A stretch of 53,198 bases of DNA from an uncultured Gammaproteobacteria bacterium (GCA_964569575.1 CAZMTL010000002.1:85618-138815), one strand, 5' to 3'; shown: positions 6,289-47,655, counted from the first letter of the stretch. The notes: a model not told the origin generated them from the letters alone. Numbers and translations: made by a program.

Positions 6289-8218
<1,930 letters not shown>

Positions 8219-8292: not shown

Positions 8293-9596
8293 TTTGATTT
8301 TTCACGAAAAAATTCGCCTGATCGCGCAAACAATCCAAACGCCACCGCAACCAACACCATCCCCGCCCACTGACTAAAAAGATAATGATCATAAAGCGCG
8401 ATCGGAAGCAATGCGGCTACAAGAAACACTCCACGCGCATGTTTGGTGAAAAAAATCCAAACACGTTTACCGAAAACCAACATCAGCAATAAGAACGGTA
8501 AAATTCCAACTTCAAACAACGCAAGCAAGTACACGTTATGAAGAGGCTGATGCTCCCAAGCATTTTGAACAACATGCAGACGATCGCGTTCAAACGTATA
8601 CTGACCTAATCCCATACCCAACAGCATCGTCGTCCCAACAATCGAAGGAAATTCTCGATACTGAACAACACGTTCATTCACGCTACGCTCTTCAAACTGC
8701 GCTGAACTTCCTGGTCGAACCGCCAAATCCAATCCGAAACTCGCGATCAAAGAACCAACAAGTAAACACATCAAAAACCCACTCTGCGCAACTACCTGAA
8801 TACGCTTCACTCGAACCAACGCAACAATCGTCAAACAACCAAATGCCGCCAACACTCCCAACCAGGCAGAGCGAGAAAAGGTCACCAAAAGAGCCGATCC
8901 AAAAAACAACAACATCGGCACAAAAACCAGCCGTTTCTTTGTAAAAAAGAACAAACCTCCAATACTTGCTAAACAAACCGCAAGATAGCCACCAAAAATA
9001 TTCGGATGCGCAAAAGACCCATACGCACGGAGCACGCGCTGCATCGTACCAAGTTCGACCACCGAATCCCCCAACCGACCGACATCACGCGAAGCAAGTC
9101 CAAGAAGAGTAGAAGCAGGACTAAACCCAAATATCACTTGAAAAAAGCCAATCAAAGCAGACCCTGAAACACCAGCGCAAAATGCAAACAGTAATCGACG
9201 TATCGAAAAAGCGTACCAAACAATCATCAGCAACAAAGCCACCGCTGACAACAAGTGCACAAACTGATTCAACAAAATCAACGGTTGCGAAACAAAAAAA
9301 GCCATCAATGCCATCCAAATAATCGTGACACCAACGGCGATCTTCATCTCTCGATTCACACGCTTCCAAAACCCACCAAAGAAAAACACCAACCAGATAA
9401 ATACCTCAACCGCATACAAGCTCAACACACCATATTCCCCGTCCACGCCTTGCGAGTAAGAAACCGTTCCAAAAATGTAACGCGCCTGCCAAGGGAGAAG
9501 AAATAAAATAATCAAAAGCGCATCGCGTTCAAAAAAACGACGAGTACTTACAACAACACTACGAAACCAATCCGGCTTTTTGAAGTTTAGATTCAT
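8289..9596 (-). CDS. O-antigen ligase (Wzy_C)-like polytopic membrane protein
   Basis: 435 aa with about 10 or more hydrophobic helices. The FSRSAWLGVLAAF segment is typical of the O-antigen ligase family. Confidence 0.55.
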   Translation of the reverse strand: MNLNFKKPDWFRSVVVSTRRFFERDALLIILFLLPWQARYIFGTVSYSQGVDGEYGVLSLYAVEVFIWLVFFFGGFWKRVNREMKIAVGVTIIWMALMAFFVSQPLILLNQFVHLLSAVALLLMIVWYAFSIRRLLFAFCAGVSGSALIGFFQVIFGFSPASTLLGLASRDVGRLGDSVVELGTMQRVLRAYGSFAHPNIFGGYLAVCLASIGGLFFFTKKRLVFVPMLLFFGSALLVTFSRSAWLGVLAAFGCLTIVALVRVKRIQVVAQSGFLMCLLVGSLIASFGLDLAVRPGSSAQFEERSVNERVVQYREFPSIVGTTMLLGMGLGQYTFERDRLHVVQNAWEHQPLHNVYLLALFEVGILPFLLLMLVFGKRVWIFFTKHARGVFLVAALLPIALYDHYLFSQWAGMVLVAVAFGLFARSGEFFREKSN

Positions 9597-10491
9597 ACCA
9601 TTCCTTTACCTCGCGTCTACGATCATTTTTATGAAACTTCAACATCGAATCACTTACTACCACCGTAGAATCTTGATTAAAACGAGCTTTCAATTCAGAC
9701 GGAAATTTCCACTGCTGCAAAAACCGTGCAAACGATTCCGGCAACTGAAGAAAAAGCAATTTAAACGGCAGCAACGGTCGAGCAAGCCGCGCACGCCGTG
9801 CAAAGACTGATTGTGGAAACACCAACTCCGCCCAAGCGTTATGTCGCAGAAAAAAAGGAAAAAGCTCTCCTGTTTCGAACATCGGCACAAGCGCACGCGC
9901 CCACCAAGCTAAATACGGATCCCCGCCCGCAAGCTGCAGACGATGAATATTCAACGCATCTTCGGCAAGAAAAAAATTCGTATCAATCGCATTCACACGA
10001 CCAGGCGCCGGACGCAATCGCAGCAACATTAATGGCAATAACGAAAACAATCGCACGCTCCACAACGACGACTTGCGTACAATCAAAAACAAATCCACAT
10101 CACTCAACGCACGCGTAAAATGAAGCGAAAGCGAATTACAAAACGCAATCCCTTGTACCCCAGGAAGTAAACGCAAATACGCCAAGTACCACTTCGTTTT
10201 GCGATACTTTTTCACCGCTTCAACATATCGAAGCTGTCGTTTGTTAAACCACTCTGCAACAACACCCGGTTCCGCAACCGCATACTGTCCGCAAAACGAA
10301 TCCAATCCCTGTTCGCGCAACCAATCAGACTGCTCTAAACACTCAAGTACCTGCGCATAAGAATACACATCTCCCCCTTCACTCATGCACCACTTCCAAG
10401 CTTCCATCACGGTTAACGGATACGAGAAAAAGGAGAAGAAAGCGAATGTCCGAAACAAAGCTGATTCAAGAGGCGTAGGCATACTACGCAA
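9559..10491 (-). CDS. hypothetical protein, possible nucleotidyltransferase fold
   Basis: 310-aa ORF with no family I can name. NSLSLHFTRALSDVDLFLIV resembles the GS...DxD nucleotidyltransferase signature. Confidence 0.5.
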   Translation of the reverse strand: MRSMPTPLESALFRTFAFFSFFSYPLTVMEAWKWCMSEGGDVYSYAQVLECLEQSDWLREQGLDSFCGQYAVAEPGVVAEWFNKRQLRYVEAVKKYRKTKWYLAYLRLLPGVQGIAFCNSLSLHFTRALSDVDLFLIVRKSSLWSVRLFSLLPLMLLRLRPAPGRVNAIDTNFFLAEDALNIHRLQLAGGDPYLAWWARALVPMFETGELFPFFLRHNAWAELVFPQSVFARRARLARPLLPFKLLFLQLPESFARFLQQWKFPSELKARFNQDSTVVVSDSMLKFHKNDRRREVKEWYESKLQKAGLVS

Positions 10492-11549: not shown

Positions 11550-12299
11550 CTATTGCGTTTGAGTTTGAGTTTTTTTGTTTGGAAGAAACACCGCGTACAG
11601 CAAGAATGTCAGCAACGTTGTTACAAGCCAGTACAACATCACACCTCCAGGCAGCGACACACATCCCAAAATCAAACTTAATCCTGGAATAAAGTACAAC
11701 ATCATCTTATTCATCGAAGCCATCATGTCTTCATCCGCCGCTCCCTTCTTCTCTCGAACAGCTGGGTCGGGTCGTCGCGAAACCGTTTGCTTCGCCTGGA
11801 AATACTGAGCAATGGCCGTTATTATCGCAAGCGGAATAGAAATTTTCGCCAAATCCATCCCTAGAAAAACTGTATCAATCACGCCAGGATTTGAAACAAA
11901 TGAATACAAATGATCAGGATTCACTTCTTTTAAACCATTTTCTAGTACACGAAATAATGAAAAAAAGATCGGCAACTGAATCAACAACGGCAAACAAGAA
12001 GCAAGTGGATTTACATTGTGGTCCTTGTACACCGCCATCAATTCCTTCGCCATGGTTTCGCGATCATCCTTATACTTCTCTCGAATTTCGGCAATTTTCG
12101 GCTGAATTTCCTGCATCTCCTTTTGCGCTTTCATCGACTTATACGTCAACGGAAATAACACTCCTTTGACAAGGACGGTGATCAAAATAATCGGAATCGC
12201 AATCGAAGCGTACGGAATCAAATCATACAAACCAACCAACAAGTTATACAAAGGCTGGTACAACACGACAAAGAAAATATTCATACTATTCCTGTACAC
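11550..12299 (-). CDS. yidC: membrane protein insertase YidC (short form)
   Basis: 249 aa. Shows LYQPLYNLLVGLY, SMKAQKEMQEIQPKIAEIREKYKDD and NPLASCLPLLIQLPIFFSLF. Confidence 0.9.
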   Translation of the reverse strand: MYRNSMNIFFVVLYQPLYNLLVGLYDLIPYASIAIPIILITVLVKGVLFPLTYKSMKAQKEMQEIQPKIAEIREKYKDDRETMAKELMAVYKDHNVNPLASCLPLLIQLPIFFSLFRVLENGLKEVNPDHLYSFVSNPGVIDTVFLGMDLAKISIPLAIITAIAQYFQAKQTVSRRPDPAVREKKGAADEDMMASMNKMMLYFIPGLSLILGCVSLPGGVMLYWLVTTLLTFLLYAVFLPNKKTQTQTQ

Positions 12300-13557
12300 T
12301 TACATCGGCCGCTTCAGCAGAACTTTCTGTAACCTCATCCGAAGCTTCTTCTTCAGTTGATTCTTCTGCTACTCCAGATTCATCTTCTTTAATAGAAAGC
12401 TTCCATCCAACCAACTTTGCTGCCAAACGAACATTCTGACCACCCTTTCCAATCGCAAGCGACAACTGATCATTCGCTACCAACAACGTCGCTTCTTTTG
12501 TTTCTTCATTCATCTCGACACGCTGAATTTTTGCAGGAGAAAGCGCCTGTTTAATAAACGTTTCCGCATCATCACTCCATTCAATTACATCAATTTTTTC
12601 TCCACCCAATTCCGAAATAATGGTCTGAATACGAGTTCCACGCTGACCAATACAAGAACCGATTGGATCAATATTTTCGTCCGCAGTAAACACAGCGATC
12701 TTCGTTCGAGAACCAGCTTCTCGTGCAATTCGCTTAATTTCTACCGCACCATCGGCAATTTCTGGAATTTCTACCTCAAACAACACGCGCACCAATTCTT
12801 CACTTGTACGCGAAAGCAAAATCTGCGGACCACGCGCGCTCAAACTCACTTCGCGCACATACACCTTAATTCGTGCTCCAGATTCGTATCGCTCTGTCTT
12901 CACCTGATCTTCTGGCAACATCACACCAACGGTTCGACCAATGTCGACCAATACAACACGCCCTTCACGTCGTTGAATTGTTCCAATCAATACTTCGCCT
13001 TCCTGTTCCTTATACTCATTAAACACAATTTCACGTTCCGCTTCGCGCAATTTCTGTGTAATCACCTGCTTGGCTGTCATTGCTGCCATTCGGCCGAATT
13101 CTCCGCTTAATGGCAATTCCGTTCGCATCACATCACCAACCTGTGCGCTCAACTTCAACACACGTGCATCCGAAATCATAATATCGGTCTTCGGATTAAA
13201 CTTCGGACCATCTTCCCCTTCTTCCACAGATTCATCCACAGGTCGCTGAAATTCTTCCACAGAGGCAAATTTAGACGCCGCTTCCGCCGCTTCTTTTCCG
13301 GCCAATTCTTCCGCCTGCATTTTTCGCATCGCTTCAATTTCTTCCTCTGGCAAATCCTCTACAACCGTTTTTACGTCATACAAACGCACGCCACCAGTTT
13401 CTGGAGCGAATTTTGCTTCGATATTTTGCATTTTGTTTCCAAAATCCTTTCGATACGCCGCCGAAAGCGCCGCTTCGATGGTTTCTACAACCGATTCGTA
13501 AGAAAGTCCTTTTTCTTCACAAATCTGCCGAATTGCTGACTCGATATCTGATGCCAT
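12286..13557 (-). CDS. nusA: transcription termination/antitermination factor NusA
   Basis: Starts MASDIESAIRQICEEKGLSYESVVETIEAALSAAYRKDFG, followed by S1 and KH regions (IGQRGTRIQ, AIGKGGQNVRLA). Start moved to ATG 13557. The track ORF extends to 13611. Confidence 0.9.
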   Translation of the reverse strand: MASDIESAIRQICEEKGLSYESVVETIEAALSAAYRKDFGNKMQNIEAKFAPETGGVRLYDVKTVVEDLPEEEIEAMRKMQAEELAGKEAAEAASKFASVEEFQRPVDESVEEGEDGPKFNPKTDIMISDARVLKLSAQVGDVMRTELPLSGEFGRMAAMTAKQVITQKLREAEREIVFNEYKEQEGEVLIGTIQRREGRVVLVDIGRTVGVMLPEDQVKTERYESGARIKVYVREVSLSARGPQILLSRTSEELVRVLFEVEIPEIADGAVEIKRIAREAGSRTKIAVFTADENIDPIGSCIGQRGTRIQTIISELGGEKIDVIEWSDDAETFIKQALSPAKIQRVEMNEETKEATLLVANDQLSLAIGKGGQNVRLAAKLVGWKLSIKEDESGVAEESTEEEASDEVTESSAEAADVSVQE

Positions 13558-13647
13558 AAAAGTAAAAAATAAATCTTTATTGAAGAAATGACCCGGCAAC
13601 AGCCGAGTCATTCAATAACCGAAGAATATCACACGAAAGAAAAAAGA

Positions 13648-13992
13648 TCAATTTGCCACCCCAATCAAATGCACCAGTTCGGTGCCACAAATCGCAATCA
13701 CATCAATACGGTATTCTTGCAATAATGTGTGTTTTTCTAAATATTGCATGGCCGTCCGATGCATCTTCTGCAATTTTGACGCAGTCACAGATTCTTCCGG
13801 GTACCCAAAATCCGCCGTCTTCCTATGCTTCACTTCAACAAAAACGATCTCGTCGCCGTCGCGGGCAACAAGATCGATTTCTCCATAACGCGTTCGAAAA
13901 TTACGATCCAAAATACGATACCCCTTTTTCTGTAAAAACACTTCCGCCTGCCGTTCGCCACTCGCACCAAACAACCTCCTCGCCAAACTCAT
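13648..13992 (-). CDS. yraN: YraN family (UPF0102) endonuclease-like protein
   Basis: 114 aa. Shows GERQAEVFLQKKGYRILDRNFRTRYGEIDLVARDGDEIVFVEVKHR. Confidence 0.85.
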   Translation of the reverse strand: MSLARRLFGASGERQAEVFLQKKGYRILDRNFRTRYGEIDLVARDGDEIVFVEVKHRKTADFGYPEESVTASKLQKMHRTAMQYLEKHTLLQEYRIDVIAICGTELVHLIGVAN

Positions 13993-13994
13993 AC

Positions 13995-14411
13995 TTATCG
14001 ACTTCGTCGCGGCAAGTACTTATTCGCCTCGGCCCGACTCTGCTGTCGCGCCTTAAGCGCAGGCACATCACGCACCACATATCGTCGAATAGAAACAATC
14101 CACGCAACAAACCCAACCACCCACACCAAAAACCAAAACCGCGCTCCCAAAAAATACACACCCTCTAGACTAAAGAAGAGCCACAAAAAACCTAGCGCAC
14201 CCATCGTTAACAACATCGTACCAACTTTCACAAACGTGTTACGCGTATACACATCATACTTCTTCTGCCGACTCACAATACGTAAAACAGCTCCAAAAAG
14301 AAGCAAGAGAGCAAATAGTAAAAAGAATGAAGTCTGAAAGAACGGACTCATGAAATCAGGCACCAACGCAAACCAGAAGTCTAAACGAAGCAACGGAAGG
14401 AAAAAATTCAT
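13995..14411 (-). CDS. hypothetical membrane protein
   Basis: 138 aa with about 4 predicted TM helices and a basic C-terminus. No recognisable family. Confidence 0.6.
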   Translation of the reverse strand: MNFFLPLLRLDFWFALVPDFMSPFFQTSFFLLFALLLLFGAVLRIVSRQKKYDVYTRNTFVKVGTMLLTMGALGFLWLFFSLEGVYFLGARFWFLVWVVGFVAWIVSIRRYVVRDVPALKARQQSRAEANKYLPRRSR

Positions 14412-14465
14412 AGAATTGAAAGGGGTAAAAATAACAATTGCCGAAGATGGTACTCAACAAAAAGC

Positions 14466-15017
14466 CTACCCGTCAAGGCGATGAAAAATAACACCCCAAT
14501 GCGAAGGTGAAACAGGAAGATCATCTTTCTTCACAAATCCATGCGGCAAAAACACCTGCTCAACATCGTACTGACTTTGCCGAAGATGCCGAGGAGGCGC
14601 CACAGGATGCGCCAAATCGTGCTTCCAATCCACCATCACAAACACCCCACCCGCCTTCAACAACCGCCGAGCTTCGCTTGCAACAATGTCTGGTGAAGTT
14701 AGCACCGACACCGCATTACTCAATAACACGACATCTAAAGAAGCGGGCGGAATACCAACACCATCTCGGCATTCAATGTCGCCCCAAATCGTCTCAACTG
14801 GTCGCGCACACATGCGAGACAAGTCATGCAAATAATCCAAATGCGGTCGATGAACATCCACGGCGTAGACGCGTCCATCTTCCCCAACCAATTGCGAAGC
14901 TGGGAATACAAAATGCCCCGTGCGTCCCGAAGCAAAATCCGCGACATGCATTCCAGCGCGAACCGGAATGCGTCGAAGTAGCGCCGTCGAATCGATAAGG
15001 ACATTTCCAAACCTCAT
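14466..15017 (-). CDS. class I SAM-dependent methyltransferase
   Basis: 183 aa. Has VADFASGRTGHF (motif I-like) and GRVYAVDV. Its start overlaps the upstream gene in an ATGA arrangement. Confidence 0.7.
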   Translation of the reverse strand: MRFGNVLIDSTALLRRIPVRAGMHVADFASGRTGHFVFPASQLVGEDGRVYAVDVHRPHLDYLHDLSRMCARPVETIWGDIECRDGVGIPPASLDVVLLSNAVSVLTSPDIVASEARRLLKAGGVFVMVDWKHDLAHPVAPPRHLRQSQYDVEQVFLPHGFVKKDDLPVSPSHWGVIFHRLDG

Positions 15018-15271
15018 ATTCCTCCGCTAAAAATATTCGTCAAAAATCCACCAATCACGCGATCGAACAAATTGGTAATAAACATAAATCCAACCAAAAT
15101 GATCGCCGTCCCCAGCAACTTATAAAACAACCGCGTCCCACCCGGACCAAATTTTCGTTCCGCAAATTCGATTCGTCCAATCATCTCCAAAATAAACGCC
15201 GTCTTATACACAAATAAAAATCCTATCGCCGCAACTCCCACCCCAATCAAAATACGTACAATAAATGACAT
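15014..15271 (-). CDS. small hypothetical membrane protein
   Basis: Two or three TM helices. Start set to ATG 15271 because TGtTATACT (15288-15280, minus strand) sits 8 nt upstream. The track ORF starts at a GTG at 15298. Confidence 0.55.
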   Translation of the reverse strand: MSFIVRILIGVGVAAIGFLFVYKTAFILEMIGRIEFAERKFGPGGTRLFYKLLGTAIILVGFMFITNLFDRVIGGFLTNIFSGGI

Positions 15272-15279
15272 ATACAAAA

Positions 15280-15288
15280 AGTATAACA
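15280..15288 (-). promoter_or_regulatory. extended -10 promoter, leaderless-type
   Basis: The minus strand reads TGtTATACT followed by 8 nt and then the ATG at 15271. Confidence 0.45.
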
Positions 15289-15317
15289 CACTTCGCACAC
15301 CGATTCGCGCAGCTTCC

Positions 15318-15650
15318 CTACTCTTTTTTCAAATCCAACTTATCCAACTTCAGCCCCTTAAAGACAAAGTAGACAACGGCCGCAATAATAAAGAAATCCA
15401 ACATTGTAGAAAGAAAATGCCCGTACCGAACTTCCGCTCCGCGCATCACAAATACGGCTGCCTCCAGTCCTTCCGTCGAACCAAACAACAACCCAATCAA
15501 AGGCTGAAAAATATCTTCCACCAACGCATTCACCAAATCCTTGGCAGCCGTCCCCAAAATAAACCCAATTGCTAATCCAACAACACCCTGCTCGCGCACA
15601 AATTGCACAAATCCTTGCGTTTGCTTCTTTAAAATAAATGACTTCAACAT
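15318..15650 (-). CDS. mscL: large-conductance mechanosensitive channel
   Basis: 110 aa. Shows FVQFVREQGVVGLAIGFILGTAAKDLVNALVEDIFQPLIG. Confidence 0.9.
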   Translation of the reverse strand: MLKSFILKKQTQGFVQFVREQGVVGLAIGFILGTAAKDLVNALVEDIFQPLIGLLFGSTEGLEAAVFVMRGAEVRYGHFLSTMLDFFIIAAVVYFVFKGLKLDKLDLKKE

Positions 15651-15659
15651 AGTAAAAAC

Positions 15660-15668
15660 AGTATACCA
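15660..15668 (-). promoter_or_regulatory. extended -10 promoter of mscL, leaderless-type
   Basis: The minus strand reads TGgTATACT followed by 9 nt and then the ATG at 15650. No SD is present. Confidence 0.45.
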
Positions 15669-15690
15669 AACATAAAACAGATAAACGAAC

Positions 15691-15718
15691 TTGACTTTTT
15701 CCCATTTTTTGATAGTCT
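15691..15718 (+). promoter_or_regulatory. sigma70-like promoter driving the G+C-rich ORF at 15764
   Basis: TTGACT (15691-15696), a 16-nt spacer ending TTTTTTGA, and TAGTCT (15713-15718). A+T-rich like the host. Followed by GGAGG (15754-15758) 5 nt before the ATG. Confidence 0.5.
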
Positions 15719-15763
15719 GCTAGGTGCAATATTGAGCATCCCGCTCAAGCACTGGAGGCGCAC

Positions 15764-16459
15764 ATGCGCAAGTGGTTGGCCGTCATCGGCCTCTCCCTGA
15801 CGTCCTCGGCGGCGATGGCCTACGGGCCGATCAACACGAACCCCGACGGGCTGTGTTTCGACTTCGAGTGGTTCGACGAGGAAGGTGAATTCTACGCCGG
15901 CGGCTCGACCAGCTTCGAGTTCGTCACGACCGCGGATACGGGGATCGACGCCCTCTGCACGCAGGGGTGGGCCGCGAACCTGTGTCGCGAGAACCTGAGC
16001 AACAGCGGGTTCACCACCGGAGACGGCGGGAACGGCAGCGTGACGTTCAGCGTCATCCAGCCGGGCAACGCTGGCAGTCGACGACAGACCCTGGACCTGG
16101 AGTACCAGGGCACCGGAGCGATCTACAACGGCACGGTTCCCACCGTGGGCAGCTTCCAGTACTTCGGTGAGATGGAGATCCCCTCCAATCCCGACTTCTA
16201 CGGATACTGGTACGAGTCGGACTGCCCCGAAGAGCTGACGAACACGCGTCGTGGTCCGATGTTGATGAACGCGGCCGGCGAGTTCTTCGGTGAGAACCCC
16301 GACTACGTGCCGCCCGTGGACGAGCCGCAGCTCGACCCGGACGGCCTGCCGAACGAAGCGCCCCGCGGGTGCTCGTCGATCGGCAACCTGCCCCTCGGCA
16401 GCGCCCTCCTGCTCCTGCCGCTCGCGCTGCTGCGCCGGCGCGAGACCTGCGCGATCTAG
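15764..16459 (+). CDS. G+C-rich secreted protein with a Gly-Cys / TM helix / RRR C-terminal sorting-type tail
   Basis: 231 aa. Signal peptide MRKWLAVIGLSLTSSAAMAYG. C-terminus GCSSIGNLPLGSALLLLPLALLRRRETCAI. All of the first 30 codons end in G or C. Has its own SD and terminator. Confidence 0.75.
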   Translation: MRKWLAVIGLSLTSSAAMAYGPINTNPDGLCFDFEWFDEEGEFYAGGSTSFEFVTTADTGIDALCTQGWAANLCRENLSNSGFTTGDGGNGSVTFSVIQPGNAGSRRQTLDLEYQGTGAIYNGTVPTVGSFQYFGEMEIPSNPDFYGYWYESDCPEELTNTRRGPMLMNAAGEFFGENPDYVPPVDEPQLDPDGLPNEAPRGCSSIGNLPLGSALLLLPLALLRRRETCAI

Positions 16460-16505
16460 AGCGCGCACAACCTGAACTCGCTCGTCCCTCGGGACGAGCA
16501 CCCTC

Positions 16506-16542
16506 GAACCGGAAGCCTCGCGCTCCGGTTCTTCCTTTTTTT
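16506..16542 (+). terminator. intrinsic terminator of the 15764 ORF
   Basis: Stem gaaccgga (16506-16513) / tccggttc (16524-16531), followed by TTCCTTTTTTT. Confidence 0.7.
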
Positions 16543-16585
16543 ACAAATAATAAAGAAGCCGGTGGCACCTTTGGGTACCACCGGC
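16543..16585 (-). terminator. intrinsic terminator of the RTX-repeat ORF
   Basis: Stem gccggtggcacc / ggtaccaccggc (16558-16585, one mismatch). On the minus strand it is followed by UUCUUUAUUAUUUGU. Confidence 0.65.
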
Positions 16586-16613
16586 CAGAAGTCACACGCA
16601 GAAGCCGTCTCGT

Positions 16614-17828
16614 CTAGCGACCGAACTCCGTGATCAAGCTCGAGCACTCAGCGTAGGCCGCCGAATTGCTCTGCTCGACGCCCGTCGGCGTCAACACGTC
16701 GGCCCAGTCCCAGACGGCATGCCGCGCTTCTTCGACGGTGTCGTTGCCGAAGAGATCGGTCTTGCACACCTGGTTCCCAGAGACGATGTACTGCTCCATC
16801 CAGGCCTTGTCGGTACCGACGGCACCGAAGAAGTAGGCCGTCTGGGGGCAGGTCGCGAGGTTGGACACGTCCGAAGGCCAGGACGTATCGCACAGAACGT
16901 CATCTCCCGGTCCGCCGTTGACCTCGTCGTTGCCAAGGCCGCCGTAGACGACGTCGATGCCAGCATGACCGTAGCTCTCGTCGTTGCCGCCACCACCGTG
17001 AATCCGATCTGCGTCGGGTCCACCGTAGATGAAGTCGTTGCCAGCGCCACCGTAGATGGTGTCGTCGTTGTACTCACCGTACAAGAAGTCGTCGCCGTCG
17101 CCACCGTCGATGTAGTCGTTGCCGTAGTCGCCCTTGATCAGATCCTTGCCGCCATGGCCGTACAACTCATCGGCGTAGTCCCAGCCGTAGATGGTGTCGT
17201 CCAGTTCTCCGCCATGAAGCTCGTCTACATCGTTGCCACCCTCGATGTGGTTGTACTGCGCGGGCGCTCCGTAGATGATGCTCGGCTGCGAACCGCCGTA
17301 CAGGAAGTGAGGGAGGTTGACCGTGCTCGCGTACAGCGAGCCATTGATCACGTCCCAGCCGGCATTGCCGTACACCGTGAAGCTGGTACCAGTCGAATCC
17401 CACGGCTCGAGGTCGTAGAAGACGCCGGGTACGGACAGCTCGCTACGAGTGTAGACGTAATCGTTCATCGTGCCGCCAGTGATCTCGACAGCGCTCACGC
17501 CCAGAGGCGCAACGTCATCGTCGATGTAGCAGCAGAAGAGCTCGATGTTCAGAGCAGGCGCGTAGCCACCCCACCCGAAGACCAACAGCTCCTGATCATC
17601 CATCGTGACGATCGACCAGTTGGCAGCAGAGGGGGGAACCGTCGCACCGGCCCAGTTCATCTCGCAGGTGAGCTCATCGCCCACCACCTCACACACAGGC
17701 GCGCCGCCGAACTCACAGGGATCGGTCCAGAGCTCGATCGGAGAACCCGAAGGGGCCTGATCACAGTCCTTCGCCACCCCACCGAACACGGTGAAGCAGA
17801 TCATGTAGAACATCATCAACAAGTGCAT
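16614..17828 (-). CDS. G+C-rich RTX (hemolysin-type Ca-binding nonapeptide) repeat protein
   Basis: 404 aa. Repeats include GGAGNDFIY, GGPDADRIH, GGGGNDESY, GGLGNDEVN, GGPGDDVLC and GGDGDDFLY. Hydrophobic N-terminus MHLLMMFYMICFTVFGGVA. Confidence 0.8.
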   Translation of the reverse strand: MHLLMMFYMICFTVFGGVAKDCDQAPSGSPIELWTDPCEFGGAPVCEVVGDELTCEMNWAGATVPPSAANWSIVTMDDQELLVFGWGGYAPALNIELFCCYIDDDVAPLGVSAVEITGGTMNDYVYTRSELSVPGVFYDLEPWDSTGTSFTVYGNAGWDVINGSLYASTVNLPHFLYGGSQPSIIYGAPAQYNHIEGGNDVDELHGGELDDTIYGWDYADELYGHGGKDLIKGDYGNDYIDGGDGDDFLYGEYNDDTIYGGAGNDFIYGGPDADRIHGGGGNDESYGHAGIDVVYGGLGNDEVNGGPGDDVLCDTSWPSDVSNLATCPQTAYFFGAVGTDKAWMEQYIVSGNQVCKTDLFGNDTVEEARHAVWDWADVLTPTGVEQSNSAAYAECSSLITEFGR

Positions 17829-17869
17829 CTCGAAGTCTCTCTGTCATCTGCGCATCATTACGCGGCGAG

Positions 17870-17898
17870 ATTATAAACTAATTCTAAACTTTAATCAA
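17870..17898 (-). promoter_or_regulatory. sigma70-like promoter of the RTX-repeat ORF
   Basis: On the minus strand: TTGATT (17898-17893), 17 nt spacer, perfect TATAAT (17875-17870). It lies in A+T-rich sequence just outside the G+C-rich block. Confidence 0.55.
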
Positions 17899-17929
17899 AA
17901 ACGACCAGATGGATTTCATCTGGTCGTTT
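17893..17929 (-). terminator. intrinsic terminator of the FG-GAP gene
   Basis: 13-bp stem aaacgaccagatg (17899-17911) / catctggtcgttt (17917-17929). On the minus strand it is followed by UUGAUU, and the U-tract is partly within the stem. Confidence 0.7.
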
Positions 17930-17944
17930 CAATATTCAACGAGA

Positions 17945-20131
17945 CTAATTCAATTCTCCACGCTTTTTCATCACAGAACGATTCACCGTCGAATCAAACG
18001 CCATCGGCGCACCTTCTTCGAATCGAGAATACATCGTCGCATCAACGTCAATCACATAATCTGCCCAATCAGATCCGTACAACTCAGCCGCAACCTGTTC
18101 ACTTGGAACATGTCGTCGTACCGCTTTAGTCATATCAGTTGAATGCATTGCTACAGCGTATACCTTTGGATCACTCTGAAGTTTAATCAGCACGACTCCA
18201 GCCTTTGGAAGCATTGGCGCACCTAACGGGATCACAGACAACGTTGCGTTTGTCACCACTTCAACGTCATCAAAATCAGCAAAGTACGTGAAGTATGTCT
18301 GACTATTCATAAACGGACGTCGCGTACCATTTACATCGATATAGTAAACAGCATCATAAGAAGTTCCACGAATCAAGTCGCCGATACGAACATCAGAAAC
18401 CATCTCCACAACACCAGTCGTTGGACTCACTCCAGTTGGTGGCAAATCAAGCTCTTCTCCCATTTCTGAATCATTAGAACCCTCTTCTTCATCAACCGAC
18501 TCTTCTTCATCCACTCCTTCACAGTCAGAGCGATCAATCACAACACTCTGCGACAAAATAGCCGATCGGTTTCCAGAGCCTGTTTCGAAAAAGGCATAAA
18601 ACGTATCAGAAGCAGCAACGTCGCGTGAAACAACCATGCTAGAATTACTCATCGAGTACACCTCTGCTTCATAAAAATCGGCATTATCCGCAAGTACAAC
18701 TCGATTTGTATTCTGAGCAGCGAAATAGAAATCCACCTCAACCTGATCCGCACAAACATCACCCACTACAGAGTGCGTAAACGATACCTCTTCTGGATAC
18801 ACGACTATTCCATTGTTACCATCTGAAGAAATATACAAATAATTTGTTTCTAACGTCACAAGCCAAGCAGCTCCAAAGTTAACACCTCCATCATCATCAA
18901 ACGGAGCTCCAACCATTAATTCAGAAAGACCATTCCCATCTTTATCCTCAAGAAGCGTTAAAGCGTCTCCAAAACCACTTCCAGCAGGAATTGTTTCTCC
19001 AAAGCCACTCTGTCCAGTTGTAATACGTCGCTGAGCAACAACCTGATCATCTTCATCAATCGAAAGGAGATAAACAGAATCCTGTCCTCGAGCACCAACT
19101 GCAATTTCCATCGTACCGTCGTTATTCAAATCCCCCATCGCCTCCGCATCAAAACCGAACAATGCTCCAGCGGCAATATCATCAATACCCGAAAGCTCTG
19201 TTTGGTCCGCAACCGTTCCGTCATCGTTCAAATACACAATCCAACCCGATCCACCATTCGCCCCCTGAGTACCGTCCAAAACAGCACCAACGAAAAGGTC
19301 CTCAACACCATCTTCATTCCAATCTCCGATCGAAGCGACCGATTGCCCAAAGCGTGTTCCTGCCGCAAGACCTACTAAACCACCAGACAAAGAACTAATC
19401 TTCTGTTCAGCCAACACTGTTCCGTCATCATCCATAAACAAAATCCACACAGCTCCACTGTTCGCCCCTCCATCAGCATCCGTTGACGAACCGACGGCCA
19501 AATCAACTACACCGTTATCATCTACGTCACCGATTGTTGCAATAGAAGTTCCGAACGCAGCATTATTCCCCAATACACCATCAAAGCTACCTTCTAAATC
19601 ACTAATCTTCTGTTCAGCCTTCACCGTTCCATCAGCATTCAAGAACAAGATATAGACAGCTCCTCGTCCGCCACCACCATCATCGTCCTGAGGCGCACTA
19701 ACTGCAATGTCAGGCACACCATCCCCATCCATATCTCCCAAATCAGCAATCGAGCTACCAAATACATCGTTGTTATCAAGAACAGCCAAAAATCCACCTG
19801 CTGTATCACTAATCTTTGCAGTAGAAAGAGCAGTTCCGTCTGTGTCCATAAAAAAGATATGCACTGCTCCTCGACCACCGCCACCATCCCCATCACCAGA
19901 CTCCCCGATAACCAAATCGCGAACGCCGTTATCGTCCAAATCACCAATTTCCTGCATGCCGTCCCCAAAGTTTCCACCAGAAACAATTAATCCTGCAGAT
20001 TCTCCTTCAAGCTCAGTCCATTTTATCTGATCTACAACGGTAATGCGTGGATCAACGCCATATGCAGCGATTGCCGCGACAGGAATAAGAAACACAGCAA
20101 GAGCAAGTAAAAAATAATATTGATATTTCAT
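17945..20131 (-). CDS. secreted FG-GAP (integrin-alpha-like beta-propeller) repeat protein
   Basis: Repeated FG..(x)..GD.D.DG..D..VGA units, for example FGSSIADLGDMDGDGVPDIAVSAP and FGTSIATIGDVDDNGVVDLAVGS. Start moved to ATG 20131 (MKYQYYFLLALAVFLIPVAAIAAYG, a signal peptide). The track ORF starts at a TTG at 20242. Confidence 0.85.
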   Translation of the reverse strand: MKYQYYFLLALAVFLIPVAAIAAYGVDPRITVVDQIKWTELEGESAGLIVSGGNFGDGMQEIGDLDDNGVRDLVIGESGDGDGGGGRGAVHIFFMDTDGTALSTAKISDTAGGFLAVLDNNDVFGSSIADLGDMDGDGVPDIAVSAPQDDDGGGGRGAVYILFLNADGTVKAEQKISDLEGSFDGVLGNNAAFGTSIATIGDVDDNGVVDLAVGSSTDADGGANSGAVWILFMDDDGTVLAEQKISSLSGGLVGLAAGTRFGQSVASIGDWNEDGVEDLFVGAVLDGTQGANGGSGWIVYLNDDGTVADQTELSGIDDIAAGALFGFDAEAMGDLNNDGTMEIAVGARGQDSVYLLSIDEDDQVVAQRRITTGQSGFGETIPAGSGFGDALTLLEDKDGNGLSELMVGAPFDDDGGVNFGAAWLVTLETNYLYISSDGNNGIVVYPEEVSFTHSVVGDVCADQVEVDFYFAAQNTNRVVLADNADFYEAEVYSMSNSSMVVSRDVAASDTFYAFFETGSGNRSAILSQSVVIDRSDCEGVDEEESVDEEEGSNDSEMGEELDLPPTGVSPTTGVVEMVSDVRIGDLIRGTSYDAVYYIDVNGTRRPFMNSQTYFTYFADFDDVEVVTNATLSVIPLGAPMLPKAGVVLIKLQSDPKVYAVAMHSTDMTKAVRRHVPSEQVAAELYGSDWADYVIDVDATMYSRFEEGAPMAFDSTVNRSVMKKRGELN

Positions 20132-20271
20132 AATAAACAAAAATGACTTCTGAAAACAGTATAACAAAAATTCGCTAAACAAACTTGAATCTATCCACAA
20201 AAATGAAACAGCACCTTGCGAGCAGAAATAAACTTTAGTCAAAAGAGCGTCAAAAACACAATATTACTCTC

Positions 20272-20312: not shown

Positions 20313-20389
20313 TGGTGGGCGCTGAGGGACTCGAACCCCCGACCCTCTCGGTGTAAACGAGATGCTCTAGCCAGCTGAGCTAAGCGCCC
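20313..20389 (-). tRNA. tRNA-Val, anticodon UAC, CCA encoded
   Basis: The reverse complement is gggcgcttagctcagctggctagagcatctcgtttacaccgagagggtcgggggttcgagtccctcagcgcccacca. It forms a cloverleaf with anticodon loop TTTACAC. Confidence 0.93.
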
Positions 20390-20416
20390 TTACAATTCCT
20401 TACTTTAACGAGTGAA

Positions 20417-20445
20417 AGTATAGTCCCTGAAATGAATCATGTCAA
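20417..20445 (-). promoter_or_regulatory. sigma70-like promoter of tRNA-Val(UAC)
   Basis: On the minus strand: TTGACA (20445-20440), 17 nt spacer, TATACT (20422-20417). Confidence 0.55.
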
Positions 20446-20463
20446 CCATGCAATCATCCAACC

Positions 20464-20550
20464 TGGTGCGAACGGAGGGACTCGAACCCTCAAGCCACGA
20501 ATGGCACTAGCCCCTCAAGCTAGCGCGTATACCAATTCCGCCACGTTCGC
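20464..20550 (-). tRNA. tRNA-Leu, anticodon GAG, long variable arm, CCA encoded
   Basis: The reverse complement is gcgaacgtggcggaattggtatacgcgctagcttgaggggctagtgccattcgtggcttgagggttcgagtccctccgttcgcacca. The anticodon loop is TTGAGGG. Confidence 0.92.
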
Positions 20551-20574
20551 CCAATAACCCCTAACACGATCAGG

Positions 20575-20603
20575 ACTATACAAAAAAAGAACCCGACCGT
20601 CAA
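20575..20603 (-). promoter_or_regulatory. sigma70-like promoter of tRNA-Leu
   Basis: On the minus strand: TTGACG (20603-20598), a 17-nt spacer ending CTTTTTTTG, and TATAGT (20580-20575). TGTATAGT gives an extended -10. Confidence 0.6.
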
Positions 20604-31336: not shown

Positions 31337-31413
31337 TGGTGGGTCTGGATGGACTCGAACCATCGACCGCCGAGGTATAAGCTCGGTGCTCTAACCAGCT
31401 GAGCTACAGACCC
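31337..31413 (-). tRNA. tRNA-Ile, anticodon UAU, CCA encoded
   Basis: The reverse complement is gggtctgtagctcagctggttagagcaccgagcttatacctcggcggtcgatggttcgagtccatccagacccacca. The anticodon stem is ccgag/ctcgg and the loop is CTTATAC. Confidence 0.88.
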
Positions 31414-38840: not shown

Positions 38841-38869
38841 TTGACAAAACCCCATTTTTTTGAAAGTAT
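38841..38869 (+). promoter_or_regulatory. sigma70-like promoter driving the G+C-rich ORF at 38926
   Basis: TTGACA (38841-38846), a 17-nt spacer aaaccccatttttttga, and AAGTAT (38864-38869). From the TTGAC onward, 20 of the first 22 positions are identical to the rnpB promoter at 39549. Confidence 0.5.
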
Positions 38870-38925
38870 ACCCACGTCCCGGCACCCCGCCTGCGACACA
38901 ACATCATGACCACAGGAATTCCATC

Positions 38926-39405
38926 ATGGAATCCAACCTCGCACTGAACGAGACGCCCGTCTCGTTCAGCGACCTCGACCTCGACACCACCCCCGCTCCT
39001 ACCCGCTTCTCGATGCTCGTCGTGAAGAAGCCCTCCAAGAAGGCGGTACGGAAGGAGATCGAGCGCATCAAGGCGCTCAAGGTCCCTCCTGGCCTCATCG
39101 AAGAGGTGGCCAAGCGACGTCTGCTCTTCTGCAAGCGTCTCGAGCTCATCAAGCCCGAAGGTGGCCTCAACGACCACGCGCTCAAGATCCTGCGGGAGTT
39201 CTCGAAGGAATGGCTCGCTGCCACCATCGAGGACGTCACCGCGCTGGAAGAAGCCATCGACGAACTGATCGCACGACCGAAGAACCGGATCGCCGAGATC
39301 GTGCCCAGGTGGTGGTTGCAGCGCAACTACCCCAGCATGACCCTCGAGCGTCGACCCATCCAGGTCGGCATGATCAACGGCCGTCGGCTCGCCTCGGGCC
39401 GGTAG
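38926..39405 (+). CDS. G+C-rich orphan hypothetical protein (159 aa)
   Basis: Starts MESNLALNETPVSFSDLDLD. AGGA sits 8 nt upstream of the ATG. 26 of the first 30 codons end in G or C. Has its own terminator. I recognise no family. Confidence 0.65.
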   Translation: MESNLALNETPVSFSDLDLDTTPAPTRFSMLVVKKPSKKAVRKEIERIKALKVPPGLIEEVAKRRLLFCKRLELIKPEGGLNDHALKILREFSKEWLAATIEDVTALEEAIDELIARPKNRIAEIVPRWWLQRNYPSMTLERRPIQVGMINGRRLASGR

Positions 39406-39457
39406 CATGACAACCTAGAACTCGCTCGCCGCGGCGTCTGCCGCAGGCGAGCACCTC

Positions 39458-39491
39458 CCGACCACGTTTCACCGTGGTCGGCATTCGTTTT
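39458..39491 (+). terminator. intrinsic terminator of the 38926 ORF
   Basis: Stem ccgaccacg (39458-39466) / cgtggtcgg (39473-39481), followed by CATTCGTTTT. A second imperfect GC hairpin lies at 39424-39453. Confidence 0.65.
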
Positions 39492-39548: not shown

Positions 39549-39577
39549 TTGACAAAACCCGCTTTTTTTGCTACACT
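39549..39577 (+). promoter_or_regulatory. sigma70-like extended -10 promoter of RNase P RNA
   Basis: TTGACA (39549-39554), a 17-nt spacer aaacccgctttttttgc, and TACACT (39572-39577). Confidence 0.65.
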
Positions 39578-39583
39578 TCGCGC

Positions 39584-40072
39584 GGGAAACAGAATGATCG
39601 CTGTTGATTTTCGACAGAGGAAAGTCCGAACACCTTTTGTGCGGCAACGTACAAAAACAAAAAACGTCGCTAACGGCGACCAGGAGAACTCGGGCAACTA
39701 AGAGTTGGATAACTGCTCTTGATTGCCTGATCGAATCCTAGGGAAAGTGCCACAGAGACTATACTAATTTTGCGAAGCAAAATTAACCTGAGCGAAGTCG
39801 AAGGGTCTTTCGTCGAAAGACAAAATGACCCCAAACAAAGCAAACGTGTAATTTCGTAAAATGAAACGTGAAAAGCAAGATGGTGTGCTCGAGCAAAAGC
39901 ATCGACCCGCTACATCTTTCGTCTTCCGGTGACGGAATGACGCGGTAAACCCGTTTTGGTGCAAGAGCAAATTTGGTAGCTCGCTTGAATTCTTTGGCAA
40001 CAAAGAAACTAGATAGATGATCATTGCCTAGATTTCGGTCTAGGAACAGAATTCGGCTTACATGTTCCCCAC
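39584..40072 (+). ncRNA. rnpB: RNase P RNA, bacterial type A, about 490 nt with an enlarged P12 region
   Basis: Conserved blocks GAGGAAAGTCCGAACAC (P4 5' side), AGGGAAAGTGCCACAGAGA and ACAGAATTCGGCTTAC (P4 3' side). P1 pairs gggaaaca with tgttcccc. The ends are approximate, within a few nt. Confidence 0.85.
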
Positions 40073-40106
40073 AAAACACTCCGGCTAGTCCGGAGTGTTT
40101 TGTTTG
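40073..40106 (+). terminator. intrinsic terminator after rnpB
   Basis: 12-bp stem aaaacactccgg / ccggagtgtttt with loop CTAGT, followed by GTTTG. Confidence 0.75.
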
Positions 40107-40158: not shown

Positions 40159-41565
40159 ATGAAACGAATCGATCTCTATTTTGCCGTAGCGAAAATTCCT
40201 CTCGACTTCATCACCCTTCTAGCTGCTGCAACTGCTGCCTACTCGGTTCGATTTTCTCCCTTCTTCGCCTCCATCCGACCTATTACGTTCAACCTCACCT
40301 ACACCGAATACTTAAACGTTGTCTCACCAGCAATCGTATTAGCACTCGCCGTATTTACACTCGCGGGATTGTACCGAATCGAAACAACACGCATCGCCAC
40401 CGAAATCAGCCACGTGTTTCTTGCAACCGCCGCCGCGATGGCCGTCATTCTGGCATTCGCCTTTTTCCAACGCGAACTATTCGATTCGCGATTCATCGTG
40501 CTCGCCGCATGGATTTTTGCAACCATCTTCCTTGTCATTGAACGTACGCTTGTCAGACTTCTTCAACGCTCACTACGCACGCTAGGCATAGGCATGATGC
40601 ATGTAGTGATTATCGGAAAAACAAAATCAAGCTGGCAGATTGAACGATTCTTCACTCGATTTCCCCGTTTCGGATACCGAGTCGCCATGCACGTTCAATC
40701 GTTTAACGAACAGTCCGAAAAACACATTCGCTCACTAAAAAAGAAAGACCAAGTCGACGCAATCCTAGTTGCAAATCCAGACATTACCAACCACGAACTT
40801 CACAAAATAAAAGCCTTCACCGACCAAGAACACCTCCGTTTTATCTACTCATCCGAAATCGCCCCAAGTGGCACAACTCGGCCAATTTTACATACATTCG
40901 CCGGTCTTCCAGTGATCGAAGTACCAAAAACCCCTCTCGACGGCTGGGGCGCTATTTACAAACGTGTCTTCGATATCGTTGGCGCGAGCGCCCTCATCCT
41001 TGCAAGCCTTCCTCTGCAAATTTTGCTCGCATTACTGGTAAAACTTGATTCGTCAGGACCTATTTTCTTCCTACAAAAGCGCGTCGGCCAGGGAGGTAAA
41101 TCGTTCACCTATTTCAAATTTCGGTCGATGAAAAAAGATGCTCACAAGTTCCGATTCGATCCAAAGTTTATCGAAAAATACGGAAATATGCGTGAAGGTT
41201 CTCCCCTGTTCAAGCTCGAAAATGACCCACGCGTCACACGCATCGGAAAAATCATGCGAAAATTTAGCATGGACGAAATCCCAGAATTCTACAACGTTCT
41301 ACGCGGCAAAATGAGTTTAGTCGGACCCCGTCCACACATGCCCGAAGAAGTCGAAAAATACCAACCGCACCAACGCCAAGTTCTCACAATCAAGCCAGGT
41401 ATCACCGGCATGGCACAAATTAGTGGCCGAGCAAATTTGGAATTCGACGAAGAGGTGCGACTCGATCAGTACTACATCGAAAACTGGACTCCGTGGCTCG
41501 ACATTATTATTCTCGCCAAAACCCCCCTCGCTGTGTTCGAAAAGCTAGAAGAGAAAAAGAAATAA
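40159..41565 (+). CDS. undecaprenyl-phosphate sugar phosphotransferase (WbaP/bacterial sugar transferase family)
   Basis: 468 aa. Has N-terminal TM helices and a C-terminal domain with KRVFDIVGASALILASLPL, GPRPHMPEEV and PGITGMAQISGR. TGcTATACT lies 9 nt upstream of the ATG. Confidence 0.85.
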   Translation: MKRIDLYFAVAKIPLDFITLLAAATAAYSVRFSPFFASIRPITFNLTYTEYLNVVSPAIVLALAVFTLAGLYRIETTRIATEISHVFLATAAAMAVILAFAFFQRELFDSRFIVLAAWIFATIFLVIERTLVRLLQRSLRTLGIGMMHVVIIGKTKSSWQIERFFTRFPRFGYRVAMHVQSFNEQSEKHIRSLKKKDQVDAILVANPDITNHELHKIKAFTDQEHLRFIYSSEIAPSGTTRPILHTFAGLPVIEVPKTPLDGWGAIYKRVFDIVGASALILASLPLQILLALLVKLDSSGPIFFLQKRVGQGGKSFTYFKFRSMKKDAHKFRFDPKFIEKYGNMREGSPLFKLENDPRVTRIGKIMRKFSMDEIPEFYNVLRGKMSLVGPRPHMPEEVEKYQPHQRQVLTIKPGITGMAQISGRANLEFDEEVRLDQYYIENWTPWLDIIILAKTPLAVFEKLEEKKK

Positions 41566-41623
41566 ATCCAACCAAAGACCCACTATTTACAGACCCGCGC
41601 TGAAAAGGTAACCTCTCTACATT

Positions 41624-42739: not shown

Positions 42740-42743
42740 CGCT

Positions 42744-43850: not shown

Positions 43851-43908
43851 GAAAAATCCATCCACAAATCCCCTCGTGAATAGTGCAAAAAACTGCTAAA
43901 ATAACAGC

Positions 43909-47648: not shown

Positions 47649-47655
47649 CATTCGT

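Follow-up and report, generated by a model that had tools for sequence, protein, structure and literature searches.

The 53,198-nucleotide stretch of DNA analyzed here (GCA_964569575.1 CAZMTL010000002.1:85618-138815, hereafter the window) is filed under the name of an uncultured Gammaproteobacteria bacterium, and it carries a G+C-rich block at approximately 15738-17868 with two convergent open reading frames (ORFs), termed ORF1 and ORF2. We consider it likely that this block was horizontally acquired from a high-G+C bacterium outside the Candidate Phyla Radiation (CPR), and that it occupies a variable slot of a chromosome resembling those of Candidatus Uhrbacteria. The slot would lie between the divergent promoter region of mscL and the terminator of a gene for an FG-GAP repeat protein. 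The two unrelated genes, each consisting of a leader, an ORF and a terminator, appear to be read from host-type sigma-70 promoters located just outside the GC-rich DNA. Viewed in this way, the locus would be a fairly ordinary but clean case of horizontal transfer, with a hint of a myxobacterium-like donor. All positions are counted from the first letter of the window.

Composition, boundaries and genes of the island

The first-pass annotation placed a G+C-rich island at 15735-17870. The island itself is confirmed, and its edges are trimmed slightly, as a GC profile at 40-nt resolution delimits the GC-rich block proper to approximately 15738-17868, with 62% G+C. The G+C content across 15735-17870 is 62.5%, compared to 46.1% for the remaining window (53 kb). 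Outside the island, the G+C fraction of 500-nt windows has a standard deviation of 0.034, and the sole other stretch above 0.55 is located at 38.8-39.7 kb. The sharp jump in composition that was originally described is evident in windowed GC, in the G+C content of third codon positions (GC3) and in tetranucleotide usage, all of which deviate. Earlier hand counts of G+C (45/60 at 16321-16380 and 17/60 at 15601-15660) were exact, as were the counts of codons ending in G or C among the first 30 codons (30/30 for ORF1 and 19/30 for trpS).

ORF1 (15764-16459, plus strand) codes for a protein of 231 amino acids and has a GC3 of 0.905, whereas ORF2 (16614-17828, minus strand) codes for 404 amino acids and has a GC3 of 0.807; these values compare with 0.35-0.51 in eight neighbouring genes. 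The left edge of the island coincides with the 5' leader of ORF1 (15738..15763, plus strand), as indicated by the GC profile and the sequence, and this leader carries GGAGG at 15754-15758, which is 5 nt upstream of the ORF1 ATG. Long antisense ORFs are a by-product of high-GC DNA. The ORF1 and ORF2 frames were chosen over such antisense ORFs because GC3 exceeds both GC1 and GC2 in these frames. High GC3 extends through every 20-codon block, including the A+T-rich-looking region for the signal peptide of ORF2. No other sizeable ORF is present in the region of 15.3-20.6 kb.

The tetranucleotide usage of the island, normalized for GC, has a correlation of 0.46 with that of the host. In comparison, values for host windows of 2.1 kb lie at 0.80 +/- 0.044 and do not fall below 0.66, and so the signature of the island is about 7 standard deviations away from that of the host.

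The recipient chromosome and its variable slot

The NusA protein encoded at 12286-13611 is 61-71% identical to those of metagenome-assembled genomes (MAGs) labelled Patescibacteria or Candidatus Uhrbacteria. Judged by such sequence affinities, the backbone is a Patescibacteria (CPR) chromosome near Candidatus Uhrbacteria, belonging to the small genome of an ultra-small bacterium. The CPR-type organism proposed in the first-pass annotation thus finds support from NusA and from the housekeeping genes of the flanks. The window codes for numerous translation and RNA components (KsgA, a release factor, four aminoacyl-tRNA synthetases, the CCA-adding enzyme, RluD, RNase J and RNase P RNA), as well as GroEL for protein folding, YidC for membrane insertion, NusA for transcription, Cmk for nucleotide metabolism and RuvA for DNA repair, and for the envelope proteins FemAB and glycosyltransferases. 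Several other GTDB records titled 'uncultured Gammaproteobacteria bacterium' (L004, L005 and L008-L010 among the loci compared) code for NusA proteins with 63-70% identity and exhibit yraN-p138-MT183-p94 synteny, and these titles are apparently mislabelled. The locus from Candidatus Uhrbacteria LJ_bin-4636 (L011, NusA 61%) has a GC content of 61%, which gives a GC range of 41-61% for the clade.

Relatives share a conserved frame with the order p249...tRNA-Val/Leu...p94-MT183-p138-yraN-nusA. The genes for tRNA-Val(UAC) and tRNA-Leu(GAG), found in the window at 20313..20550 (minus strand), serve as conserved markers of the slot between p249 (DAGK-like) and p94. The p249-p94 interval of relatives spans 1-4.6 kb and carries unrelated cargo in each genome, such as genes for a metalloprotease-like protein, GNAT, HAD and thioredoxin-like proteins, and an HNH-type gene. 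ORF1, ORF2, mscL and the FG-GAP gene are all missing from the syntenic slot of five relatives that keep the frame (the closest with 71% NusA identity), and ORF1 and ORF2 have no matches in 160 related loci. Because relatives fill the same slot with differing cargo, the island resides in a lineage-specific hot spot. The two tRNA genes are 2.4 kb from the island, beyond the FG-GAP gene, and the island is not located at a tRNA 3' end.

The left neighbour, mscL (15318..15650, minus strand), is divergent from ORF1 and has host-like composition (GC 0.43, GC3 0.51), and its identity is confirmed by Pfam (MscL, 8.7e-20). Pfam likewise confirms the right neighbour (17945..20131, minus strand; GC3 0.35) as coding for an FG-GAP repeat surface protein (FG-GAP, 4.6e-20), with a possible extension to a TTG codon at 20242. 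The latter gene was previously described as native, which holds for its composition only, since relatives do not share it at this position. The claim that no neighbouring gene is disrupted and that integrases and transposases are absent agrees with a scan of 37 ORFs across the window, in which neither type of mobility gene and no disrupted gene was found.

Promoters and terminators

Each of the two genes was proposed to be driven from an A+T-rich, sigma70-like promoter. The consensus scan corroborates this for ORF2, whose promoter (17870..17898, minus strand) has the form TTGATT-17-TATAAT with 10/12 matches and is followed by GC-rich DNA directly downstream of the -10 element. The ORF1 promoter (15691..15718, plus strand) was read from the sequence as TTGACT, a 16-nt spacer ending in a T-tract and TG, and TAGTCT. 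This promoter is absent from the output of the scan and so carries no score there, yet it fits the type found at rnpB and tRNA-Leu. Only three copies of the pattern TTGAC..CCC.TTTTTT.G are present in the 53 kb, and these precede ORF1, rnpB (RNase P RNA) and ORF3, a gene of a second islet described below. The tRNA-Leu promoter (~20562-20590, minus strand) has the same T-tract/TG/-10 layout. We therefore assign the ORF1 promoter to a host stable-RNA type, since this layout is shared with rnpB and tRNA-Leu. The GC-rich DNA starts 0-20 nt past the -10 hexamer at ORF1, ORF2 and ORF3.

The promoter type found at rnpB, tRNA-Leu, ORF1 and ORF3 consists of TTGAC, about 10 nt, T6-7, G, 0-1 base and the -10 element. 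An extended -10 of the form TGn is present at ORF1, ORF3 and rnpB (39549-39577), and at tRNA-Leu the -10 element TATAGT directly follows the G. The consensus promoter scan is blind to this T-tract/TG type (15691-15718, 38841-38871, 39549-39577, and ~20562-20590 on the minus strand).

ORF1 and ORF2 converge on a 154-nt spacer in which, as originally proposed, each gene has its own intrinsic terminator. Folding predicts a first hairpin 3' of ORF1 at 16480-16499 (plus strand), followed by the ORF1 terminator (16506..16542, plus strand), which is composed of a hairpin at 16506-16531 and then a T-run (fold of -34.2 kcal/mol, z of -3.7). The ORF2 terminator (16545..16586, minus strand), identified by scan, has a 13-bp stem at 16586-16557 and then a T-rich tail (fold z of -3.5). 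The spacer between these two terminators is AT-rich. On the right side of the island, the terminator hairpin of the FG-GAP gene (17899..17929, minus strand), a 13-bp perfect inverted repeat with a fold z of -5.0, abuts the ORF2 promoter. Repeats flanking the island do not exceed the chance level, the best being a 14/18 match at 15716 and 17919.

Homologs and possible donor

A search of 1.84 billion representative proteins yielded 10 relatives of ORF1, which are small secreted proteins with 30-42% identity that share two invariant Cys residues and a DGGxG motif. An 11th match, a hemicentin-2-like protein of the skate Amblyraja radiata, was set aside because it involves only a short repeated stretch. 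The only named relative is a hypothetical protein encoded on a 71%-GC contig of a Myxococcota MAG, and the others are unlabelled metagenomic proteins. A word-index search uncovered no relative of ORF1, and neither ORF1 and ORF3 nor the ORFs antisense to them gave a result in exact look-ups. CPR homologs of the island proteins were found neither in 5.8 billion clusters nor in the 1.84 billion representatives.

The tetranucleotide correlation between the island and the Myxococcota locus of this named relative (L162) is 0.78, which is the best fit obtained and is within the range of that locus's own windows (0.756-0.85). Within the same small and non-representative reference set, high-GC Chloroflexota loci reach 0.61-0.72 and the 61%-GC Uhrbacteria locus L011 reaches 0.48. 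The synonymous codons of ORF1-3 mirror those of L162 and are opposite to those of the host for Leu (CTG/CTC versus TTG/CTT), Glu (GAG versus GAA) and Pro (CCC/CCG versus CCA). These similarities tentatively suggest that the donor belonged to Myxococcota or to a compositionally similar high-GC lineage, a placement to which we give somewhat less than an even chance. For the first-pass suggestion that the donor may have been the physical host of this organism, the donor-like signature is the one line of evidence.

Searches for a phage origin gave no PHROGs match, and a tblastn search with ORF3 against phages and plasmids was empty. The comparison of the island DNA with plasmids matched only the RTX repeats of ORF2, and IMG/VR contained no relatives of ORF1, of the N-domain of ORF2 or of ORF3. 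The first-pass view that the island is unameliorated foreign DNA from a high-GC donor is in accord with its composition, the relatives of ORF1, the Myxococcota-like signature, the variable slot, and the reproduction of the left junction in a separate assembly (see below).

The ORF1 protein

The translation of ORF1 begins with a Sec-type signal peptide, MRKWLAVIGLSLTSSAAMA/YG, in which MRK and a hydrophobic core are followed by AMA/YG. AlphaFold (AF2) models residues ~30-155 as a small all-beta barrel (pLDDT ~90) whose core contains the two invariant Cys residues (65 and 74). A Foldseek search of the PDB with this model gave no match at E <= 0.001, and the best non-significant matches were FABP-like proteins, LolA, avidin and designed barrels, all with TM <= 0.45. 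A Pro/Asp-rich linker, modelled at low confidence, follows the core. The protein ends with the tail RGCSS-IGNLPLGSALLLLPLALL-RRR-ETCAI, which has a tripartite layout composed of a Cys-containing signature, a transmembrane (TM) helix and an Arg cluster.

This organization resembles the MYXO-CTERM, Synerg-CTERM and JDVT-CTERM sorting signals (PMC11980579; 10.1101/2023.06.07.544157) in its signal peptide, Gly/Ser-rich GCSS, Leu-rich helix with Pro, and RRR. Tails of the Cys/TM/Arg type are found in Myxococcota, Synergistetes and a few other lineages (10.1101/2023.06.07.544157). A tail of this kind is also present in one relative of ORF1 (P0124), which ends with GCS..TM..RRR, and Myxococcota is the source of the named relative. 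However, the tail of ORF1 scores below the curated cutoffs for Synerg-CTERM (TIGR04564; 17.1 vs 22.5) and MYXO-CTERM (TIGR03382; 10.5 vs 15.85 bits), and it differs from known signals by carrying five residues after the Arg cluster.

The associated pathway differs as well. Myxobacterial sorting requires lipidation, the CPBP protease MrtX, a type II secretion system (T2SS) and an outer membrane (PMC11980579). The scan of the 37 window ORFs (53 kb of genome) gave no match to CPBP proteases (PF02517), and thus no CPBP-family myxosortase, and it revealed no sortase. CPR cells are generally held to be without an outer membrane, and the recipient is expected to lack both this membrane and a T2SS. 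Because the cognate myxosortase and the outer membrane are probably lacking, the uncleaved TM/Arg tail at the C-terminus would most likely keep the ORF1 protein at the cell surface. Presumably exported via its Sec signal peptide, the protein might present its small beta-barrel, braced by a disulfide, on a stalk rich in Pro and Asp.

The ORF2 protein

The N-terminus of ORF2 is hydrophobic and signal-like (MHLLMMFYMICFTVFGGVA). Residues 197-313 form 13 consecutive RTX nonapeptides of the GGxGxDxUx type (Pfam HemolysinCabind, 4.7e-23), and the 11 Cys residues of the protein are concentrated in the N-domain (1-190) and the C-domain (314-404). Matches to PDB entries (CyaA, 1.5e-28) are limited to residues ~191-323. 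Likewise, database matches cover the repeats only, and ORF2 constitutes a one-member cluster. A single-sequence structure model is unreliable outside of the beta-roll and is too poor for a structure search.

ORF2 is similar to RTX proteins such as CyaA, serralysins and AlgE epimerases in its 13 nonapeptides and its strong Pfam and PDB matches. Unlike these proteins, it has a signal-like N-terminus, 11 Cys residues, no recognizable context for a C-terminal signal of a type I secretion system (T1SS), no adjacent genes for an ATP-binding cassette (ABC) transporter or membrane fusion protein (MFP), and N- and C-domains of its own that are without relatives. Genes for an ABC transporter, MFP or TolC linked to ORF2 are absent from the window. 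A classical T1SS substrate or toxin was considered for ORF2, and this is ruled out by the N-terminal export signal, the 11 Cys residues and the lack of transporter genes nearby. Given its hydrophobic N-terminus, Ca2+-dependent RTX beta-roll and Cys-rich flanks, we instead read ORF2 as a putative Sec-type surface or secreted binding protein. The protein would be exported through its hydrophobic N-terminus by the Sec pathway, and its RTX beta-roll, flanked by Cys-rich domains, would fold with extracellular Ca2+ once outside the cell.

Thus, the description of both products as extracellular-looking is sustained, as features of export or of surface location are present in ORF1 and ORF2 alike. Both might contribute to surface binding along with the FG-GAP protein, and their domain content is what suggests a possible role in attachment, adhesion or host contact.

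A second islet and a shared 3' module

A second GC-rich islet with a single gene lies between trpS and rnpB (38841-39491, GC-rich at 38872-39490; plus strand). The gene, ORF3 (38926-39405, plus strand), codes for 159 amino acids and has a GC3 of 0.82. Its product has no export signal, and it has no family, PDB, phage or plasmid match. The ORF3 promoter (38841-38871, plus strand) shares 20 of 22 positions with the adjacent rnpB promoter (39549-39570), and nothing else in the window matches the rnpB promoter as well (score of 34 compared to 27 for the next best). With the two promoters so alike, a 22-nt direct repeat flanks the islet on both sides.

ORF1 and ORF3 share a 3' module that begins 8-10 nt past the stop codon. 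At ORF1, this module includes the 18-nt motif ACAACCTGAACTCGCTCG and the first hairpin (16467..16499, plus strand), whereas at ORF3 the motif reads ACAACCTAGAACTCGCTCG (39410-39428, plus strand) and is followed by hairpins at 39424-39452 and 39458-39481 and then by a T-run. The common sequence is ACAACCT(A)GAACTCGCTCG. After the motif, the base of the hairpin (GCTCG/CGAGC) is kept and the upper stem differs, followed by CGAGCACC, a second and unrelated hairpin, and a T-run.

Nowhere in the window does the ORF1 3' flank find a better local match than at the ORF3 flank. This match scores 31, whereas 2000 shuffles and 608 GC-rich control segments reached 26 at most. Because chance often produces single 11-mers in common, the case for the shared motif depends on its position and on the extended match. 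Neither IMG/VR nor 2.1 Mb of related loci contain the motif, and the modules have no match in Rfam. Most simply, the shared 3' module would be an extragenic or terminator element that recurs in the genome of a common donor.

Possible mode of acquisition

The notion of one island is only partly retained. The compositional block is real, but it may not be a single unit, given that the genes are unrelated in one donor-like genome, that the spacer is AT-rich, and that ORF3 shares the 3' motif. The convergent neighbour of the Myxococcota homolog of ORF1 is unrelated to ORF2, and therefore the ORF1-ORF2 pair is not a conserved donor operon. ORF1 and ORF2 may have arrived together or separately, and repeated single-gene acquisitions and the gain of a single island are equally possible. 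As a guess, DNA uptake might have been followed by illegitimate or short-homology insertion downstream of active promoters. That the acquisition was recent is suggested by composition only.

Several observations weigh against the horizontal acquisition proposed above, or against parts of it. No mobility gene, att-like repeat or target duplication was found that would explain how the DNA entered. A donor with 65-70% GC would not usually have terminators with such long T-tracts, which may be host DNA. With relatives of ORF1 that are so distant, and with none for the end domains of ORF2 or for ORF3, the donor lineage appears to be unsampled. The Myxococcota label comes from one MAG annotation plus a composition match that is approached by Chloroflexota. 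On the recipient side, scans anchored on NusA uncovered no relative closer than 71% (GTDB genomes) or 69% (JGI metagenomes). Moreover, the right junction (17828-17944) is outside the independent contig that covers most of the block.

Alternative explanations

An assembly artefact that joined a fragment of some high-GC organism to CPR sequence is a natural concern for a metagenome-derived contig. However, a 5545-bp Logan contig (L081, from SRR15237806) produced by a different assembler is 100% identical to positions 12273-17817 of the window. It covers mscL as an identical copy, the junction of mscL and ORF1, and all but ~50 nt of the GC-rich block. The contig stops 11 nt before the ORF2 ATG, which leaves the right junction without independent cover, although this break is uninformative because the SRR15237806 assembly is generally in 2-5-kb pieces (L165). 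Exact look-ups of the FG-GAP protein (with two starts), p249 and trpS found no further cover of the right junction, and the bactofilin contig is only 1.9 kb. An artefact would need two chimeric joins in a syntenic 138.8-kb contig with no repeat at either join, and at each junction the boundary is placed exactly where a host promoter gives way to a complete ORF. The insert also has paired terminators, and a second islet has the same layout, so we regard an artefact as exceedingly improbable. We are nearly as reluctant to accept that these genes have been resident for long and inherited vertically, and that they owe their high GC to protein composition or selection and not to recent transfer. 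The Gly/Asp-rich RTX repeats do raise GC1 and GC2 somewhat, and fully host-like promoters could imply long residence. Against this, the excess is at third codon positions (0.81-0.91 versus 0.35-0.51) across all 20-codon blocks, relatives are without these genes at the syntenic site, and no CPR homolog exists in either protein collection. It is also very unlikely that the DNA came from another high-GC lineage within the CPR rather than from a different phylum. The related locus L011 has a suitable GC content, and most horizontal gene transfer detected in Patescibacteria is reported to occur within the phylum (PMC12455944), but the tetranucleotide signature of the island is no closer to that of L011 than to that of the host. 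The only taxon-labelled relative of ORF1 is from a Myxococcota MAG, with the others on unlabelled short contigs, and the two unlabelled relatives whose DNA was examined have no NusA-type CPR context. Moreover, the Cys/TM/Arg tail is a feature of Myxococcota, Synergistetes and a few others (10.1101/2023.06.07.544157).

A different kind of alternative, which is compatible with foreign cargo, invokes an unrecognized cassette-type insertion in the CPR lineage. Single-gene units, each extending from leader to tandem hairpin, would be placed directly behind promoters of the host, with the common 3' motif contributing to a mobilization or recombination signal. In support of this idea, ORF1 and ORF3 code for unrelated proteins 23 kb apart and yet carry the same 3' module, with a similarity that exceeds the shuffles and the GC-rich controls. 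All three units have GC-rich DNA beginning within 20 nt of the -10 element, the ORF3 islet is bracketed by the direct repeat of the rnpB promoter, and GC-rich inserts of one gene each are present in relatives at further intergenic positions, of which those in one MAG (L006) are flanked by direct repeats. Integron gene cassettes provide a partial parallel, as they are also single promoterless-looking ORFs with an imperfect palindrome that has conserved ends and a variable centre, and likewise combine unrelated cargo with a common 3' element. The differences are substantial: there is no integron integrase, attI, array or RYYYAAC/GTTRRRY core in either 3' module, and the units are scattered at separate intergenic sites, each ending in a T-run terminator. 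The motif has only two copies in the window, is missing from ORF2, is unlike integron attC core sites, and does not appear in IMG/VR or the related loci. The window has no copy of the L006 repeat, and chance is expected to produce isolated 11-mer matches. The vicinity lacks a recombinase, and no tyrosine recombinase is present among the 37 ORFs scanned. A family of repetitive extragenic palindromic (REP) or terminator elements in the donor genome explains the shared motif more simply, and the promoter resemblance fits a host promoter class that includes tRNA-Leu. On balance, the cassette-type explanation appears unlikely. Slightly bolder, and in our estimation a long shot, is the proposal that ORF1-3 and the inserts of relatives are products of a previously undescribed type of gene capture. 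Transcript-sized units, each with a leader, an ORF and a tandem-hairpin 3' module (two of which carry the common 18-nt motif), may have come from one high-GC partner and been placed immediately behind strong promoters of the recipient. This partner, possibly Myxococcota-like, would be the physical host of an episymbiont.

Related islets and known genomic islands

Similar islets were observed in related genomes. In the closest relative (L003, NusA 71%), a 0.7-kb insert between yraN and nusA (1901-2600) has a GC content of 0.60 compared to 0.46 for the genome. Its gene codes for a 191-amino-acid signal-peptide protein that is Gly/Trp/Tyr-rich, has a GC3 of 0.79 and no Pfam match, and is preceded by a T-tract/TG promoter. 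A Candidatus Uhrbacteria MAG (L006, with the same arrangement in L082) has three copies of a 70-90-nt direct repeat, AGTCACTCCGTCTTAGACATTAAGACTTAGACAA.GAGACTTAGACATTTTGTCTAAGTCTTGGAGAGA, at 7832-7931, 8611-8710 and 9766-9865. These repeats bracket inserted genes between yraN and nusA, one of which is GC-rich with a GC3 of 0.73, and the arrangement resembles a small cassette array. Among other Patescibacteria loci fetched via NusA, single-gene ORFan islets are present in L026 (17768-18394), L043 (14288-14590) and L114 (8992-9429), with GC3 values of 0.76-0.88 and no Pfam matches.

Hundreds of genomic islands and transferred genes have been catalogued in 125 Patescibacteria genomes (Gios et al. 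2025; PMC12455944). Because small islets recur in relatives and are catalogued in this phylum, where genomic islands are reported to be common, their horizontal gain is an already known kind of event. The island described here is like those reported (PMC12455944) in its deviating GC, GC3 and tetranucleotide usage, its variable slot near tRNA genes, its accessory surface functions and its absence from relatives. It differs in measuring 2.1 kb with two genes, in having no integrase and no flanking repeats, in not abutting the tRNA genes, and in that each gene is trimmed to a leader, ORF and terminator behind a host-type promoter.

Other features of the window

Three surface-type proteins of host composition are encoded at 1275-1931, 45045-47648 and 47641-49461, and these carry a bacterial TSP3 (Ca-binding) repeat, DUF4012 and DUF11 (one each). 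The surface-type genes adjoin a glycosyltransferase cluster at 40159-45048. The RNase P RNA gene (class A; 39582-40076, plus strand) is 495 nt long for a 367-position model, which corresponds to ~130 nt of insertions, and it is overlapped by two spurious-looking ORFs.

Most bacteria read AUA codons with a lysidine-modified CAU tRNA. The window instead carries a tRNA-Ile(UAU) gene (31337-31413, minus strand), which is an uncommon bacterial way to read this codon.

Implications

The hosts of most CPR/Patescibacteria lineages are unknown, and unameliorated surface genes from other phyla are among the few sequence-level clues to the cells that these organisms contact. The present locus offers several leads. 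ORF1 belongs to a rare protein family held in common with a Myxococcota MAG, and the 18-nt 3' motif could identify the genome of the donor if public genomes were searched for it. Another lead is the myxobacterial-style C-terminal sorting tail, which appears to be stranded in a cell that is probably unable to process ORF1. Finally, the arrangement suggests how a streamlined genome can express foreign genes, as the imported DNA begins right behind host-type promoters that resemble those of stable RNAs.

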